A stretch of 64,000 nucleotides of DNA from a phage. Positions 3,586-64,000 of this stretch are shown one piece after another. Location: the sequence record PZ445534.1; one strand, 5' to 3'. Within the stretch, counting starts at the first letter, position 1, and each line of letters opens with the position of its first letter. Both the position numbers and the translations under genes were made by a program. A model generated the notes under the pieces. It was not told where the DNA came from, ran no database searches, and saw only the letters and a list, made by a program, of their open reading frames with translations.

Positions 3586-3917
3586 TGGGAACATTAACTA
3601 TTGATGGTAAGAACAAAATCCTCGCCACGCTAACCCCAACGACTATTATTTTACACAATGTAGACCCAACGGCAGACCCTACAGCAAATAAGGTTACTCA
3701 GCCAGTGGCTATTTATTTTTCTGAACCGGATAATGGCTTAATTGCCTCAGAAGACACAGTTAATATTACTGTTCCAGCTTCTGCAACGGTCTCACACTAT
3801 AGCTTGTGGGATGCTAACGATAAATGCGTGGCAACTGGTGCTCTTAGCAAACCTCAATTCTTTGCTGAAGAAGGTATCTATGTTATCTCTTCAGTCTCTG
3901 TAGATTTAAACAAATAG
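3585..3917 (+). CDS. hypothetical head-module protein
   Basis: 110 aa ORF coupled to upstream ORF. Confidence 0.4.
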   Translation: MGTLTIDGKNKILATLTPTTIILHNVDPTADPTANKVTQPVAIYFSEPDNGLIASEDTVNITVPASATVSHYSLWDANDKCVATGALSKPQFFAEEGIYVISSVSVDLNK

Positions 3918-3928
3918 GGTGAGTAAAA

Positions 3929-5275
3929 ATGAGTTCGAATATCTTCAGACTTGCTGATAGATTATTCAACCAACCTTTACTAGCCACTGAATCATTAGCT
4001 CACTCAGCAGCAACTTATGTGAATAACAGATTGCTGGGTGATGTCCAAGCAGCAGTAAACTTTGATAAACCCAAAGGTGACGCAAGAAGTCTTTTAAAAG
4101 TAAAAGATGACATTGCTATTATCCCTATTATGGGTGGTTTAACCCATCGTATGACATTCATTGATGCAATGTGTACAGGTGGATTAAGCTCTTATGAAGG
4201 TTTGCGTAGAGGCTTTGACGAAGCTTTAGCAGATGAGTCAATTAAGACTATCGTTCTGCACATTGATTCTGGTGGTGGTGAAGCTTCAGGTTGCTTTGAA
4301 TTAGCACGTCACATTATGGCTTCAAGAGGCCAAAAGAAAATTATTGCTTATGTAGATGAGTTCGCTTGTTCCGCTGCATACGCTCTTGCATCTTCTGCTG
4401 AAGAAATTATTGCATCACCAGATGCAGATGTTGGTTCTATTGGTGTAATTATGGTTCATCAGGAATTAACTAAAGCATTTGAAAAGAATGGCGTGACAAT
4501 TAACGTCATCAAAGCTGGTGAGTTTAAAGGTATGGGTTCACCATTCCAAGCACTTTCAGAAGAAAGCAAAGAAAGACTTCAAAAGAGAATTAATGATACC
4601 TACGCAACCTTTACAGGTTTTGTAGCCGAATCTCGTAATCTCTCTGAAGAAGCTGTAAAGAATACTGAGGCGAATGTTTATTCTGCTCAGGAAGCTCTTG
4701 AACTTGGTTTAATTAACTCAATCATGTCTCAAGATGATTTCTTAAATTACTTACAAGGTTCTGAAGAGGCTCCTGTAAGTTTAAACGTTAACAATTCAGG
4801 TGAAGAAATGACTGAACAAGAAAAGCAAGAACTAGAAGCTTTGCGTCTTCAGGTTGCTCAAATGAAAGCTAAAGAACAGGAAGCTGCTTTGTCAGATTTG
4901 ACTAATAAGATTTCTGCTTCTGCTGAAGCTTTTGGGTTTGATGCAAAAGAAGCTGCAACGGCTATTTTAGGTGCTGGTCTTGACAACCCTCTGAGTGTTC
5001 TGTTTATGAATGCTATGGAAGGTGCTAACCAGAAACTTAATGAAACTATCGCGTCCCATGCTTCTGCAATGGAAGAAAAAGAATCAGAAATTACCAAGCT
5101 GAAAGAAACTGCTGGTGCTGTTCTTGAACATTCCAACGCTATGGAAGAAGTGGGTAATGACGGCGAAGCTGATTTGGTTGAAGAAGAAAAAGAACCAGCT
5201 AAGAATGCTTCCGAAGACACCGCTGAACAACGCAAACTGGCTCTCCAGAATGCTCTAAAATCTCTTATCAAATAA
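3929..5275 (+). CDS. prohead serine protease (S49/ClpP-like, lambda gpC-like) fused to coiled-coil scaffold domain
   Basis: N-terminal half has S49 peptidase-like core (IPIMGGLTH...HIDSGGGEASGCFEL...EFACSAAYALASSAEEI); C-terminal 150 aa E/K/A-rich coiled coil typical of scaffold. Confidence 0.75.
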   Translation: MSSNIFRLADRLFNQPLLATESLAHSAATYVNNRLLGDVQAAVNFDKPKGDARSLLKVKDDIAIIPIMGGLTHRMTFIDAMCTGGLSSYEGLRRGFDEALADESIKTIVLHIDSGGGEASGCFELARHIMASRGQKKIIAYVDEFACSAAYALASSAEEIIASPDADVGSIGVIMVHQELTKAFEKNGVTINVIKAGEFKGMGSPFQALSEESKERLQKRINDTYATFTGFVAESRNLSEEAVKNTEANVYSAQEALELGLINSIMSQDDFLNYLQGSEEAPVSLNVNNSGEEMTEQEKQELEALRLQVAQMKAKEQEAALSDLTNKISASAEAFGFDAKEAATAILGAGLDNPLSVLFMNAMEGANQKLNETIASHASAMEEKESEITKLKETAGAVLEHSNAMEEVGNDGEADLVEEEKEPAKNASEDTAEQRKLALQNALKSLIK

Positions 5276-30962: not shown

Positions 30963-33131
30963 ATAAATGCCATTTTTGGCTTTCTTACGACCTTTTGTAA
31001 TCTCGTGGAGAAGTTCCTCATCCTGTGTCTCCCTACAACGAACAATGTCTTCTTCCTTGTTCAGACCAAAGTAAATACTATTCAGTGTATGTGCATCAGT
31101 ACCTGTGTAGACTTCATAGAGGTCATTCTCAGCATCATAACGCAGATACTTGTCAGTTTCTGGGTTAAGATACTTGTCAAGATGCTTGCAGTAGTATCTA
31201 CCATCATCTTGCTTAGTGAACTCAACTGACTCTTTACCCTCAGTTACCGCTTTAGTGAAGTCTTCATCACCCATAAAGTTACAAAGAAGAACTAGCTGGG
31301 CTGAGTTTTGGTCTACAGAGACAACGTTAGTACCTTCTTCACAAATCCACACCTCCCTCATAGGTGCTCCATAGACAGCAGCACCAGACGGTACGTTTAC
31401 AATACCATATTGTGTCATACGTCCAGTTGAAGTACCAAACACCATTGCACCAGCACTAAGGCGACCATCAGGACGAATCTGGTTCAACCAACCTTTTTCA
31501 TCATCTTTTGAGTTCTCAATAGTTCTACGTCGGTGCATCAAAGTATAGTACTTAGCAATCTTCTGTCCAAGCTCACCTTCAATCGTATCATAAGATGATT
31601 CAGTAAGTTTTGGTGAAGTACGGATTAAGCAAGGCTCAAGCAAATCTGTGTATTTCTTCACAGACCAGTTATGCTCAATGTACTGGACACCTTCATGCTC
31701 AACATAGCTCAAACCACACCGCTCAACCATTTCCTGCCACTTAGGATGCTTTGTAATCATCTTTTTATTGTCTTTGAAACGACAAACTTTGATAGGGCGA
31801 CCATCTGAGTCTTTCTTGTAATTCCAGTCATCTGGAATCCAACCAACTGATTTCAAGTAGTCTTTAACAACTGCTACCTGAGTCATACGAGAAACTTCAA
31901 ACTCAATTGGTGTATATGGTGCATCAATCAAACCTGTGTAGCGACTTGACTCAAGTTCAAAGTGGTTAACAACGTGGCTGTTATAGTACTTCACAGTTTT
32001 GACTGTTTTTACTGGCTTCCAGTCTTTGCATTTCTTACCAATCTTTGCGTTCAACTCATTGCAAATTGCACGAGCATCCTTCATTGCTACAAAACCTTCC
32101 TTGTACTCTTCACCAGTTACAGAGTTGGTTGGTGTATAGCAATTCCTTTTTTCAATGTTAAAAATCTTTGTAGTTGGCTTACCAAATGGTTTGATTTCGT
32201 ATGTCTGCATCTCACCATTACGTACCTGCTGACGATACTTTGTCTTAGGGTACTTGGTAATTCTTTTCAGTCCATCTGCATGACCAAATGTTTCAACATA
32301 CTCATTCCAAGCTTTTGCAAACTCTTCTCCAGTGACTTTACCTTTGGTCTTAATAGTTGGAGGAAGATGTGGTTCAACCTCTGAAGCAAGCTCATTAGTC
32401 AACTTGTCAAGTTCCTTTACATGGAACTCCATAAGCTCTTTATCAGCTTTCCAACCATTAATAGCTTGTTGACTCATCCAGAAAGATGTTTCTTTAGCTC
32501 GCATGTAGGTTTCATAAGTGTCTATGCCACACTTCTTAAGCTTGAGATACTCATTATCAAGTGCCCGTTTAGTTTTGGCGTTAATACGGATATCTTCTAC
32601 AACACGAGTGAAGATTTCTGCATTCCACACACCCCAATGTTCAATCTCTGGTTTACGAACACCAACACGAGCACCCCATGCAGCCAAGCCATGAGCACCT
32701 TTATAACCCTTTGGAGTTGGTCTATCCATCCACTGAACACGAGACTGGATAAGAGAATCCTGAAAGAAATTACTCCACGGCTTACACTTTGGATTATCAA
32801 AGTTCCATAAATCCGGTGCAATGTGATTGAAAACCCACCAGTCATAACCTAGACCATTATGAATGCAAAGACGTTTTGCCTTTAACGCAAACTCAACACC
32901 TTCACGTAAGCCACCCTTAATGTACTTGGTATACTTGTGACCGAGGATAGGCTCATCTGTAAAGACCCATACAGGCGGCTCTTTATCGTCAGATTTATAG
33001 TCTGCGAAAGCCATTACGTGCACTTTAGTGAACTCAAGGAGTAAACCATCAGTTTCTGTATCACCAACTAAATGTAAGTTTTTAAAATCTACGTTTTCCA
33101 TTTTTACTCCCTCTAAAATCATTAACCTCAT
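30918..33131 (-). CDS. DNA polymerase (family A) 5' exon: 3'-5' exonuclease domain and N-terminal polymerase domain; last ~14 codons of ORF are intron read-through
   Basis: Exo I motif DTETDGL; motif A VDQNSAQLVLL (cf. DYSQIELR); motif B start RKKAKNGIY. Confidence 0.8.
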   Translation of the reverse strand: MRLMILEGVKMENVDFKNLHLVGDTETDGLLLEFTKVHVMAFADYKSDDKEPPVWVFTDEPILGHKYTKYIKGGLREGVEFALKAKRLCIHNGLGYDWWVFNHIAPDLWNFDNPKCKPWSNFFQDSLIQSRVQWMDRPTPKGYKGAHGLAAWGARVGVRKPEIEHWGVWNAEIFTRVVEDIRINAKTKRALDNEYLKLKKCGIDTYETYMRAKETSFWMSQQAINGWKADKELMEFHVKELDKLTNELASEVEPHLPPTIKTKGKVTGEEFAKAWNEYVETFGHADGLKRITKYPKTKYRQQVRNGEMQTYEIKPFGKPTTKIFNIEKRNCYTPTNSVTGEEYKEGFVAMKDARAICNELNAKIGKKCKDWKPVKTVKTVKYYNSHVVNHFELESSRYTGLIDAPYTPIEFEVSRMTQVAVVKDYLKSVGWIPDDWNYKKDSDGRPIKVCRFKDNKKMITKHPKWQEMVERCGLSYVEHEGVQYIEHNWSVKKYTDLLEPCLIRTSPKLTESSYDTIEGELGQKIAKYYTLMHRRRTIENSKDDEKGWLNQIRPDGRLSAGAMVFGTSTGRMTQYGIVNVPSGAAVYGAPMREVWICEEGTNVVSVDQNSAQLVLLCNFMGDEDFTKAVTEGKESVEFTKQDDGRYYCKHLDKYLNPETDKYLRYDAENDLYEVYTGTDAHTLNSIYFGLNKEEDIVRCRETQDEELLHEITKGRKKAKNGIYASVAHVKRCELLEA

Positions 33132-33161
33132 ACATTACTGCAAAAAATTATAAAAAGCAAG

Positions 33162-33190
33162 TTGACAATGCACTTGACAAGGTGTTAATC
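33162..33190 (+). promoter_or_regulatory. candidate promoter region with tandem TTGACA hexamers in divergent intergenic region
   Basis: TTGACA at 33162 and 33174 in AT-rich 227 bp region between divergent polymerase and rightward operon; -10 element weak. Confidence 0.25.
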
Positions 33191-33358
33191 TTTGCGAAGT
33201 GGGTTTTTACTTAAAAGGTTACTTAACAGTTTAACTATACAGATACTTTAAAACTCTTAAAAGATTATTTAATAGCTTTTAAAAAGCTTTAAAATATAAC
33301 GTATAGAATACGTTAAGATAAAAGATTAAAACTTAATAGTTACTTAAAAGAGGCTTAC

Positions 33359-62649: not shown

Positions 62650-63435
62650 ATGGGTATTGTAAAAATCATCAATGGCGATATCTTTGCCGCATTTGATAAA
62701 GGTAAGTTTGACATTATTGGTCACGGTTGCAACTGTATGAATTTAATGGGTGCAGGTATCGCTGACAAGATTTCTAAACTTTACCCAAAAGCATATGAGA
62801 CAGATACAGAAGTCTATCTATATGCAGGTGGCATAGGTCACAAACCCTGTGAAAATTTACTGGGTAATTTCTCTGTAGCACGTTTAAAACAAGGTCGTAT
62901 AGCTAACCTTTACACTCAGCTTAAGACTGGTAAAGATGCCCGATACAGTGCTTTAGAGTCATCTTTGAAGCAACTTAACAGATACTGTGAAGTTAATCAG
63001 TTGAAGAAAGTTGGTTTACCTATGATTGGTGCAGGTATCGGTGGACTTGACCCTCAAGCCGTCACAGTTATCATCAATCAGGTGATGAAGAGCGTAGATG
63101 TTTATCTATATGTCTATGAAGGAGAGATGTACCATAAGTTACTCTCAGGTTGGAAGAACTACTGTGAACCAGAATACTTTGCAGGTGTAGCAGTGTTCAC
63201 AGATAACGCAGTTACCCTCTTCAGACGAAGAAAAGGTAAGATACATCAAAGTAACCCTCCGGTTGAAAAGATGTCTCTAAGTAACGCTCTAGTTACCCAC
63301 CTGTCAAAGAGCAATCACAGAATTGCTGTAACATTTGGTAGTGATGCAGAAGCTTATATCTATGCAAGAACTGATGAGGATATTGAGGCAATCTTCTCTT
63401 CACCAGAAGTTACCTTCTTAGACGCAAAGAACTAA
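62650..63435 (+). CDS. macro-domain (ADP-ribose binding/processing) protein
   Basis: 261 aa; macro-domain-like blocks IINGDIF...IIGHGCNCMNLMGAGIADKI and VGLPMIGAGIGGLD (cf. YmdB-type GDIT...NAAN...GGGGV and FPAISTGVYG). Confidence 0.5.
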   Translation: MGIVKIINGDIFAAFDKGKFDIIGHGCNCMNLMGAGIADKISKLYPKAYETDTEVYLYAGGIGHKPCENLLGNFSVARLKQGRIANLYTQLKTGKDARYSALESSLKQLNRYCEVNQLKKVGLPMIGAGIGGLDPQAVTVIINQVMKSVDVYLYVYEGEMYHKLLSGWKNYCEPEYFAGVAVFTDNAVTLFRRRKGKIHQSNPPVEKMSLSNALVTHLSKSNHRIAVTFGSDAEAYIYARTDEDIEAIFSSPEVTFLDAKN

Positions 63436-63508
63436 GAAACTCTGTAGGATATTCACAATAGACTAAGCCTTTCTTATCTGGTAAATTTTTCAGGTAAGGA
63501 GGGCTTTT

Positions 63509-63687
63509 TCATTTCAGATTTGTGCAGGTAGAGTTCTGTAGAGAAATCTATAGAGAAAATTTTGAACTCCAAAGAGAAAATTCATTCTCAAACTGTGCAG
63601 GTAATCTCCAAAGAGCTTTTTCATTTTCAAAACGTGCAGACCCCGCTCAGGTCGGGCAAGAAAAATCATTTTAGAATTGTGCAGGTA
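63509..63687 (+). repeat. four imperfect direct repeats (~22 nt, TTCATTTTCAAANTGTGCAGGTA) in non-coding region
   Basis: Copies at 63509-63530, 63581-63603, 63620-63640, 63665-63687; spacing 72/39/45 nt. Confidence 0.6.
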
Positions 63688-63706
63688 GGTTTTTATAGAC
63701 AGCCAG

Positions 63707-63742
63707 CCCAACCCCTCTCCCCCTCTTACTCCCCCTCTCCCC
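63707..63742. repeat. polypyrimidine C-tract; opposite strand has G-quadruplex-forming potential
   Basis: CCCAACCCCTCTCCCCCTCTTACTCCCCCTCTCCCC; complement has five G3+ runs with short loops. Confidence 0.6.
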
Positions 63743-63863
63743 AAAAGTCAAGAGAAAAATTTGTAGCGGATTGAAAAATAATTCTTGATTTGCGTTCTGT
63801 TTTGTGGTAGTCGTGCGCACCCGTTTCATTACAGTTTTGCCAAAAATATTTTTAAAATTTTTA

Positions 63864-63892
63864 TTGACTCTTTGAACGTGGTTATCTAATAT
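63864..63892 (+). promoter_or_regulatory. sigma70-like promoter TTGACT-17-TAATAT
   Basis: TTGACT 63864-63869, 17 nt spacer, TAATAT 63887-63892, ~65 nt upstream of ATG 63959. Confidence 0.4.
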
Positions 63893-63958
63893 TTGCATCA
63901 ACGGAGAGGGAATAACCTTCCCCACTAAATAACTAACCTTAAACTAGGAGACTCTAAA

Positions 63959-64000
63959 ATGGCATATCGTGCACCTAAATTCATCAATAAAGACAACTTT
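63959..64000 (+). CDS. 5' end of a CDS truncated by window edge
   Basis: ATG with upstream AGGAG RBS; open to window end (MAYRAPKFINKDNF). Confidence 0.3.
   Translation, partial: MAYRAPKFINKDNF

Follow-up and report, generated by a model that had tools for sequence, protein, structure and literature searches.

Conserved head-to-tail repeats downstream of the macro-domain gene of Felix O1-like phages, a probable array of protein-binding sites

A 64,000-nucleotide stretch of phage DNA (sequence record PZ445534.1), called the window here, carries an array of four direct repeats at positions 63509–63687. The array lies in a non-coding gap that the first-pass annotation had recognised and put at 520 bp; its exact extent is 524 bp (63436–63959). 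The gap separates a macro-domain gene (62650–63435, + strand, 261 codons; Pfam Macro, E = 1e-7; PHROG 335; annotated as 'phosphatase' in relatives) from the next small gene, which starts at 63960. From matches to this locus, the window was assigned to Felixounavirus (Felix O1-like myophages, subfamily Ounavirinae): 242 phage records, nearly all from Felix O1-like myophages, matched 1.6 kb around the array with 60–99% identity, and the hosts of the matching phages were Escherichia, Salmonella, Shigella and Citrobacter. Among phages for Salmonella typing and biocontrol Felix O1 is a classic, and its relatives are common in therapy collections.

All four copies lie on the + strand and follow the motif TCATTTT-N6-GTGCAGGTA. 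The cores are at 63509–63530 for copy 1 (c1, TCATTTCAGATTTGTGCAGGTA), 63582–63603 for c2 (TCATTCTCAAACTGTGCAGGTA), 63621–63642 for c3 (TCATTTTCAAAACGTGCAGACC) and 63666–63687 for c4 (TCATTTTAGAATTGTGCAGGTA); reading of the sequence and a repeat search both returned the coordinates and consensus first proposed for four direct repeats of ~22 nt. Start-to-start distances are 73, 39 and 45 bp, which leave c1, c2 and c4 roughly in helical phase and c3 out of phase, and pairwise identity among the copies is 13–20 of 22 positions (59–91%). The core lacks symmetry and is bipartite, made up of TCATTTT and GTGCAG(GTA), the midpoints of which are ~12–13 bp from each other. In c2 the first part contains TCATTC, a T-to-C change private to the window, and in c3 the 3′ end is degenerate and the GGTA tail is missing.

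The conserved unit is longer than the ~22 nt originally given for it, at ~38–40 bp, and comprises, in this order, the left flank, five consecutive A/T positions and the core. In the window the units span 63490–63530 (TCAGGTAAGGAGGGCTTTTT plus the c1 core), 63563–63603 (TGAACTCCAAAGAGAAAAT plus the c2 core), 63602–63642 (TAATCTCCAAAGAGCTTTTT plus the c3 core) and 63647–63687 (TCAGGTCGGGCAAGAAAAA plus the c4 core), all on the + strand. An AAAGAG-like sequence had been described in front of every copy; it precedes c2 and c3 (CTCCAAAGAG), while c1 is preceded by an arm of a terminator (GGTAAGGAGGGC) and c4 by GGTCGGGCAAG. The spacer between c1 and c2 also contains a small tandem duplication, TCTATAGAGAAA twice, at 63535–63558.

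Further copies were sought genome-wide, as the first-pass annotation had recommended, and none was found beyond the array. With up to 3 mismatches allowed, the whole 64-kb window contained the array copies only (0.00 expected by chance, 100 shuffles), and a search of both strands of two complete relatives (88.8 and 89.4 kb) with TCATTT-N7-GTGCA gave four matches, all inside the array. Tandem Repeats Finder reported no regular array in the window.

Loci were gathered from GenBank phages, IMG/VR and metagenomes, and the place of the array and the order of its copies were the same in every relative, with 3–5 copies. Absence from close relatives, combined with a lack of protein binding and of a mapped transcription start, had been named beforehand as a ground for discarding the repeats; they were present at the same position throughout the subfamily. 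The lineages with the array were Felixounavirus (four copies, spacing 73/39/45), Mooglevirus and Suspvirus (four copies, 75/41/45) and Kolesnikvirus, which are Erwinia phages (four copies, 37/37/39, close to a regular tandem of period 37), plus two divergent relatives, L135, from a lineage with a replaced macro-domain allele (three copies), and L063, an 88-kb phage contig (five copies). The macro-domain gene was the upstream neighbour in all of them, with protein identities of 37–100%, and the core TCATTTT-N6-GTGCA persisted where the macro-domain protein was only 37–42% identical. The tail changed from GCAGGTA to GCATAGG in all Kolesnikvirus copies and in most copies of L063. Features peculiar to single copies were also conserved; for example, the lack of the GGTA tail in c3 was kept across Felixounavirus, Mooglevirus and Suspvirus.

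Nucleotide diversity was computed within Felixounavirus from 16 distinct sequences. It was 0.014 in the TCATTT and GTGCA blocks, 0.013 in the left flanks of the units, 0.057 in the seven middle bases of the core, 0.078 in the c1–c2 spacer and 0.259 in the c3–c4 spacer, compared with 0.018 at second and 0.140 at third codon positions of the macro-domain gene. The motif blocks were thus about ten times less variable than the neighbouring third codon positions, and purifying selection on the units is comparable in strength to that on amino-acid-determining positions. Few non-coding features found in the family are as strongly conserved as the array.

Conservation of the array extended across gene exchange on either side. 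Two alleles of the macro-domain gene, ~41% identical, were found in genomes whose neighbouring genes were 90–100% identical (L048 3561–4334, L079 7165–7938, L135 12037–12810). The allele swap carries the terminator, c1 and the c1–c2 spacer along with it and removes c2, and the array persists; the conserved repeats seem to act as recombination junctions in this exchange. On the other side, the first gene downstream of the array varies among phages. Some close relatives have an extra cassette of ~480 bp with a 62-codon gene (L001 4557–4745, L002 3557–3745), inserted after the promoter designated P2 below and before the counterpart of the gene at 63960, and on this evidence the downstream block can be read as a series of shuffled promoter–gene–terminator cassettes. 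The unit of terminator, array, G/C-rich tract, conserved block and promoter stayed together despite the exchange of genes on both sides.

Outside the subfamily the array was not recovered. Unrelated phages with macro-domain genes (L040, L041) did not have it, and a pattern scan of 185,579 bacterial genomes gave 37 matches, none of them enterobacterial, whose titles indicated unrelated metagenome-assembled genomes and non-enteric species, the sequences themselves being uninspected. Scans of viral and metagenome sequences returned subfamily relatives only, besides coding repeats of tail fibres, other unrelated repeats and one contig of 10,229 bp (Ga0180433_10011929; L050/L171). This apparently unrelated contig has two direct repeats of ~50 nt containing TCATTTTAACATAGTGCA on its − strand (~3909–3980), shortly before a promoter-like site and the start of a gene, and the repeat may be a chance match or a distant analogue of the motif.

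The remainder of the gap contains a terminator, a tract of unusual composition, a conserved block and one strong promoter. The rho-independent terminator of the macro-domain gene (63465–63511, + strand; a 17-pair stem, then a T-run) is annotated in phage ASO1A and was described in the Felix O1 genome paper as t13, with a free energy (dG) of −21.8 (PMC3185647). Its T-run is the start of c1, and the c1 and c3 units resemble the 3′ half of the terminator plus the sequence after it. Downstream of c4, a C-rich, G-poor tract of 43 nt (CCCAACCCCTCTCCCCCTCTTACTCCCCCTCTCCCC, 63703–63745, + strand), with G-runs on the − strand, has the highest duplex stability of the region (below the 1st percentile, at the stable extreme, in a nearest-neighbour profile). 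The − strand has at least four G-runs and is prone to form a G-quadruplex; many Felixounaviruses (e.g., VpaE1) have a G-rich + strand sequence, GGTAGGTGGGTGCAGGTGGGG..., in place of this tract, and the C-rich version is retained in Mooglevirus, Suspvirus and Kolesnikvirus. The next 68 positions, 63746–63813 on the + strand (AAAAGTCAAGAGAAAAATTTGTAGCGGATTGAAAAATAATTCTTGATT... / AAAAGTCAAGAGAAAAATTTGTAG...TTCTTGATT; ~1760–1835 in L007), were found by alignment to be nearly invariant between genera, more so than flanking coding sequence.

A weak candidate promoter, P1 (+ strand; TTGATT at 63785–63790, a 17-nt spacer and TAGTCG at 63808–63813), was noted by eye at the end of this block and was not called in the consensus scan. 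In both Felixounavirus, where the site is the weak P1, and Kolesnikvirus, GTCAAGNGA and an A/T run lie 38–39 nt before a −35-like TTGAYT, and in Kolesnikvirus this site is the main promoter. A degenerate fifth half-copy of the repeat (TCATTACAGTTTTGCCA, 63826–63842, + strand) was detected in the repeat search (88% identity to c1), ~66 bp upstream of the predicted start of P2; it is kept in Felixounavirus and Suspvirus and is not found in Sf17. P2 itself is a strong sigma70-type promoter (63864–63892, + strand; TTGACT, 17 nt, TAATAT), annotated as a promoter in ASO1A, which points rightward into the small genes and has upstream of it an A/T tract in the 99th percentile of low duplex stability. 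The four copies lie 176–355 bp upstream of its −35 element. Scanning of both strands with the sigma70 consensus gave P2 only and no promoter inside the array, in agreement with the original remark that the repeats do not resemble sigma70 hexamers.

The genes on the two sides of the gap are of different kinds. To the left, a long + strand block leads from replication and nucleotide-metabolism genes to rIIA/B, polynucleotide kinase, spanins, the macro-domain gene and the terminator. To the right, ~14 small orphan genes on the + strand, most with a promoter-like site in front, continue to the genome end; no product of this block matched a Pfam family, and the four that were scanned against PHROGs matched only families of unknown function. 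By its gene content the small-gene block looks like the usual early host-takeover block. Because the long rightward block ends to the left of the array and small early-type genes begin to the right, the array marks a module boundary.

Its distance from the genome ends was taken from relatives. For phage Pr103Blw, direct terminal repeats of 581 bp were reported from PhageTerm (PMC8303462) and are annotated in the record (L011 1–581, L012 8842–9422), and the independent isolate I14.1 (L082/L083) has an exact 581-bp repeat with identical boundaries. The array is inside the right end by 6.7 kb in Pr103Blw and 7.3 kb in I14.1, or 7.6–8.1% of the genome. Within the terminal repeat, TGTTA(A/G) direct repeats recur densely every 11 bp, and inverted TTAACA copies occupy the extreme left; the architecture resembles arrays of ArcA-type response-regulator sites, and the repeats may serve as a signal for the terminase or for end binding. 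The sequence ATATTTTAAAATTTTGCA, which matches the array core weakly (4 of 18 positions mismatched), was seen ~40 bp from the right genome end. In L063 (− strand, ~770–600), an AT-rich stretch with ~ten TTAACA/TTAACC repeats comes directly after the array of five copies; this motif is the one that fills the terminal repeat of Felixounavirus.

Several classes of element were considered and rejected for the array. It is not coding, because 2-nt differences in spacing between genera (39 versus 41 bp) break any reading frame, and the frames are not conserved between genera; the small open reading frames annotated across it (gp14 of FO1a, L010 1627–1839; Pr103Blw_00144, L012 2715–2873; CDS0132–0134 of I14.1, L083 36922–37289) are probably spurious. 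As first proposed, it is not an array of clustered regularly interspaced short palindromic repeats (CRISPR): the copies are 59–91% identical and irregularly spaced (73/39/45), the 'spacers' are conserved between phages, and there are always 3–5 copies at one position. Consensus sites of host factors were compared by eye (DnaA, IHF, Fis, Fur, CRP, OmpR, the MarA box, sigmaE, sigma54, Chi and KOPS), and none fitted all copies; partial resemblance was limited to single copies, such as c2 to an OmpR site or a sigmaE −35 element.

The searchable literature yielded no account of these repeats; in the Felix O1 genome paper, terminator t13 and other direct repeats are listed and the array is not (PMC3185647). 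The array is a cis-element of a generally familiar type, strongly conserved and not described before. From the arrangement and conservation of the copies, it probably consists of head-to-tail docking sites for a sequence-specific DNA-binding protein. The process served is a more tentative matter; a replication origin or replisome-loading site is possible and is the reading favoured here.

A single sequence-specific factor would bind the copies in the manner of iterons, each site being asymmetric and in two parts. Because the centres of the parts are ~12–13 bp apart, roughly one helical turn, one protein or domain pair could read two successive major grooves. Occupation of 3–5 sites would then build a larger protein–DNA complex across ~180 bp. 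This stretch would be shielded from transcription, with the strong terminator halting incoming RNA polymerase at c1 and P2 firing away from the array, and an origin here might cooperate with transcription from the adjacent promoters. Because the unit stays intact while flanking genes are swapped, a genome-level role in cis is inferred and not the control of one gene.

Direct-repeat arrays at one non-coding locus near promoters are found in lambda, iteron plasmids and lactococcal phages. An origin is favoured because a single-locus, non-coding array of direct repeats by promoters has this classical signature, and because the unit is independent of the flanking genes. Iteron arrays have at least three direct repeats of ~17–22 bp in one orientation at a single locus, and the array has four with a core of 18–22 bp. 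Like the iteron origins that were compared (lambda ori with its four O-protein sites; F, P1, pSC101 and R6K; lactococcal phages), it has several asymmetric sites of ~18–22 bp in the same direction at one non-coding locus, with drifting spacers and a promoter nearby. Unlike them, it adjoins a very stable G/C tract and not an easily melted AT-rich segment, has no initiator gene next to it, is irregularly spaced and has an unusually conserved core; DnaA boxes were not seen at the array by eye, no dedicated DnaA-box scan having been run.

A number of observations weigh against this reading. No easily melted DNA adjoins the array, the flank at 63680–63759 being below the 1st percentile (most stable), and the only unstable segment nearby is the tract upstream of P2, ~170 bp away. 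The least stable 60-bp duplex of the window is at ~33.3 kb, in the divergent intergenic region by the DNA polymerase gene, which is a more conventional place for an origin. The spacing (73/39/45; 37/37/39 in Kolesnikvirus) has no constant helical register. Pfam and PHROG searches gave no Rep-like or DNA-binding assignment for the neighbours, and no initiator gene is adjacent. Iterons usually diverge fast, whereas the core of the array is unusually stable across genera. The sole recognisable regulator, an HTH_3 protein, is a poor candidate for the binder: it was found in 261 records of Felixounavirus, Mooglevirus and Suspvirus and in no Erwinia phage, and no homologue of it was detected in the array-bearing Erwinia phages. 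A host factor or an unrecognised protein may be the binder. Reports of binding, transcriptome or origin-mapping experiments on Felix O1-like phages were absent from the searchable literature.

Gene content raises a further point against an origin. T7 uses promoters and not iterons at its origin. The replisome of these phages is T7-like, with a primase-helicase and a PolA-type polymerase (PMC3185647). Besides these enzymes, the locus has in common with the T7 primary origin (tandem promoters 1.1A/1.1B plus an AT-rich segment) that it is non-coding, lies ~8% of the genome away from one end and joins repeated units to promoters directed outward. In T7, the units serve as promoters for a phage-encoded RNA polymerase and recur across the genome; here no phage RNA polymerase is known, the repeats are not promoter-like and they occur at a single locus.

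The divergent intergenic region at 33102–33358 has the DNA polymerase gene (− strand) on one side and the + strand block on the other, contains many CTTAAAAG/CTTTAAAA repeats and is a candidate for an alternative origin or a divergent promoter region. Iterons and operator sites, both suggested by the first-pass annotation, are both plausible for the array at 63509–63687 on the pattern of conservation; neither easily melted DNA nor an initiator gene adjoins it. In its likely way of working the array comes closest to iterons or operators. It was not classed as a member of either group because tests for an unwinding element and for an initiator gene gave negative results, as did a test for promoter overlap.

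Regulation of the adjacent promoters is nearly as likely as a replication origin, though doubtful in itself. With a phage or host transcription factor on the four sites, and perhaps on the weak fifth, looping or cooperative binding would turn P1 and P2 on or off in the course of infection. In every case the array occurs together with the conserved promoter block, 176–230 bp upstream of the −35 element in three lineages, a degenerate fifth copy lies at about −66 of P2, the conserved differences between copies suggest graded affinities, and the phage encodes the HTH_3 protein. The temporal regulation of Felix O1 was also described as not understood in the genome paper of 2010 (PMC3185647). However, the four good sites are far upstream and overlap no promoter (c4 ends 176 bp before the −35 element of P2), and the gene directly downstream is not conserved. 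Because ~ten further genes of the block have their own promoter-like sites without the motif, control at the array could not govern the whole block. The HTH_3 protein, moreover, was not detected in the Kolesnikvirus phages that have the array, and the sites are direct repeats, whereas Cro/CI-type proteins usually bind palindromes. Among known direct-repeat operators, those of response regulators and AraC-type proteins are similar in having asymmetric two-part sites, head to tail, upstream of a promoter and with a weaker site nearer to it; they differ in that here the strong sites are 176–355 bp before the −35 element, the gene served is not conserved and the factor is only putative.

The copies are unlikely to be four tandem promoters, at which the host RNA polymerase, guided by a specificity factor from the phage or by an alternative one, would start a burst of rightward transcription. 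Precedents are the few special early promoters of N4 and the tandem promoters at the T7 origin. A unit of ~38–40 bp has the length of one promoter, the copies share the direction of the downstream genes, and several have a TAnnnT hexamer right after GTGCAGG (TAGAGT, TAATCT, TAGGTT). Yet no sigma70-type match is present in the array, the hexamer is absent from c3 and shifts in position and sequence between genera, and the most conserved bases would fall in the spacer and start region and not at −35 or −10. The family has no known phage RNA polymerase or sigma factor (PMC3185647). The proposal of promoters for a phage-specific factor, made in the first-pass annotation, is weakened by the failure of the TA-start hexamer to be kept between genera and by the restriction of the motif to one locus, which also led to the rejection of a general middle or late, or genome-wide, phage promoter motif.

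By analogy with T5, the array might be a DNA-entry stop, a reading that is rather improbable; a factor bound to the repeats would pause entry after the right-terminal ~7 kb, and the small genes would be expressed first. The position 7.6–8.1% of the genome from the right end compares with 7.9% for the first-step segment of T5, at the end of which lies a repeat region that is conserved and untranslated (bioRxiv 10.1101/866236), a match of percentages that is possibly a coincidence. Small orphan genes with their own promoter-like sites fill the interval from the array to the end, and the array is better conserved than neighbouring coding sequence, as was reported for the T5 region (bioRxiv 10.1101/866236). 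Like the T5 injection stop (Repeat Region 3 in the left terminal repeat), it is untranslated, carries repeats and borders a terminal block of small early genes on the inner side, ~8% from one end. The T5 region, however, is ~1.2 kb long, contains inverted repeats, palindromes and paired DnaA boxes, and is inside a 10-kb terminal repeat, whereas the array consists of 180 bp of simple direct repeats outside a 581-bp terminal repeat. Felix O1-like phages are not known to inject in two steps or with the right end first. No A1/A2-like proteins were found, the proteins of the block matching no family of known function, and neither DnaA boxes nor inverted repeats of the T5 type were seen by eye, again without a dedicated scan for DnaA boxes. 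The likeness to T5 is limited to position and to better conservation than the neighbouring genes.

Two further readings are very improbable, namely a packaging recognition site of the pac or cos type and a relic without function, left by duplication of the terminator region. The layout is loosely like that of the repeated R sites of lambda cosB. No small terminase subunit is known in the family (PMC3185647), a point in favour of such a site. A packaging role, raised in the first-pass annotation on the supposition of a nearby genome end, is nevertheless unlikely because the 581-bp terminal repeats of the two relatives place the array 6.7–7.3 kb from the termini, and the terminal repeat has a dense and different repeat system of its own. 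The resemblance of the c1 and c3 units to the 3′ half of the terminator and the sequence after it would suit a relic; conservation at the level of second codon positions, across genera whose macro-domain proteins are ~40% identical, rules out neutrality.

Least probable of all is an RNA-level element, in which the transcribed repeats would imitate a type III antitoxin (ToxI-like) or work as a sponge or small RNA. ToxI-like antitoxins have tandem repeats of ~36 nt, and by length and number the unit of 37–40 nt in 3–5 copies would be within the range of type III antitoxin arrays; the arrays of ToxI, CptI and TenpI and of phage pseudo-ToxI are similar in unit length (~37–40 nt), copy number and single direction, and the Kolesnikvirus array, of period 37, is near-regular. 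Against this, the window array is not a regular tandem (irregular spacing, 59–91% identity), the strong terminator is directly upstream and not downstream, no promoter was called before or inside the array, and there is no toxin gene. A known or structured RNA was also rejected, as Rfam gave no family even at E up to 10, folding was no better than that of shuffled sequence (z = +0.48) and no covariation or compensatory pairs were found.

Finding the binder of the array would probably reveal either the origin or a master control point of the early programme. Should it be a host protein, it would represent a host dependency common to phages of E. coli, Salmonella, Citrobacter, Shigella and Erwinia. 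The four sites of ~22 bp also offer a compact, mutable target for engineering or attenuating these phages. Interest would rise sharply if the array proved to be a DNA-entry stop or revealed a shared host factor: in the former case, a bound factor would hold back the rest of the genome until early products act, and a mechanism known only in T5-like siphophages would extend, with a simpler signal, to an unrelated family of myophages.

Assembly breaks were far more frequent than expected by chance at positions equivalent to ~63640–63770, in L013, L014, L017 and L035 (IMG/VR sample 3300045988) and in MN850610.1 (L005); 4 of the 14 related contigs from this sample end within 350 nt past the macro-domain gene. 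One breaking contig enters Nextera adapter directly after CTCTTACTCC, and another forms a chimera with E. coli mukB/mukE. The breaks may stem from a gap in coverage at the C-tract, from mixed strains whose assemblies branch within the variable tract, or from a nick or a fragile site. The Andreotti record begins within the array region, and inverted-duplication artefacts are present at both of its ends; its start was rejected as a genome end on account of these artefacts and of the verified termini elsewhere. The GenBank record of I14.1 (PP892526.1) gives the taxonomy as Demerecviridae; Tequintavirus, whereas its sequence and gene order are those of Felixounavirus, and the taxonomy line looks like a database labelling error.

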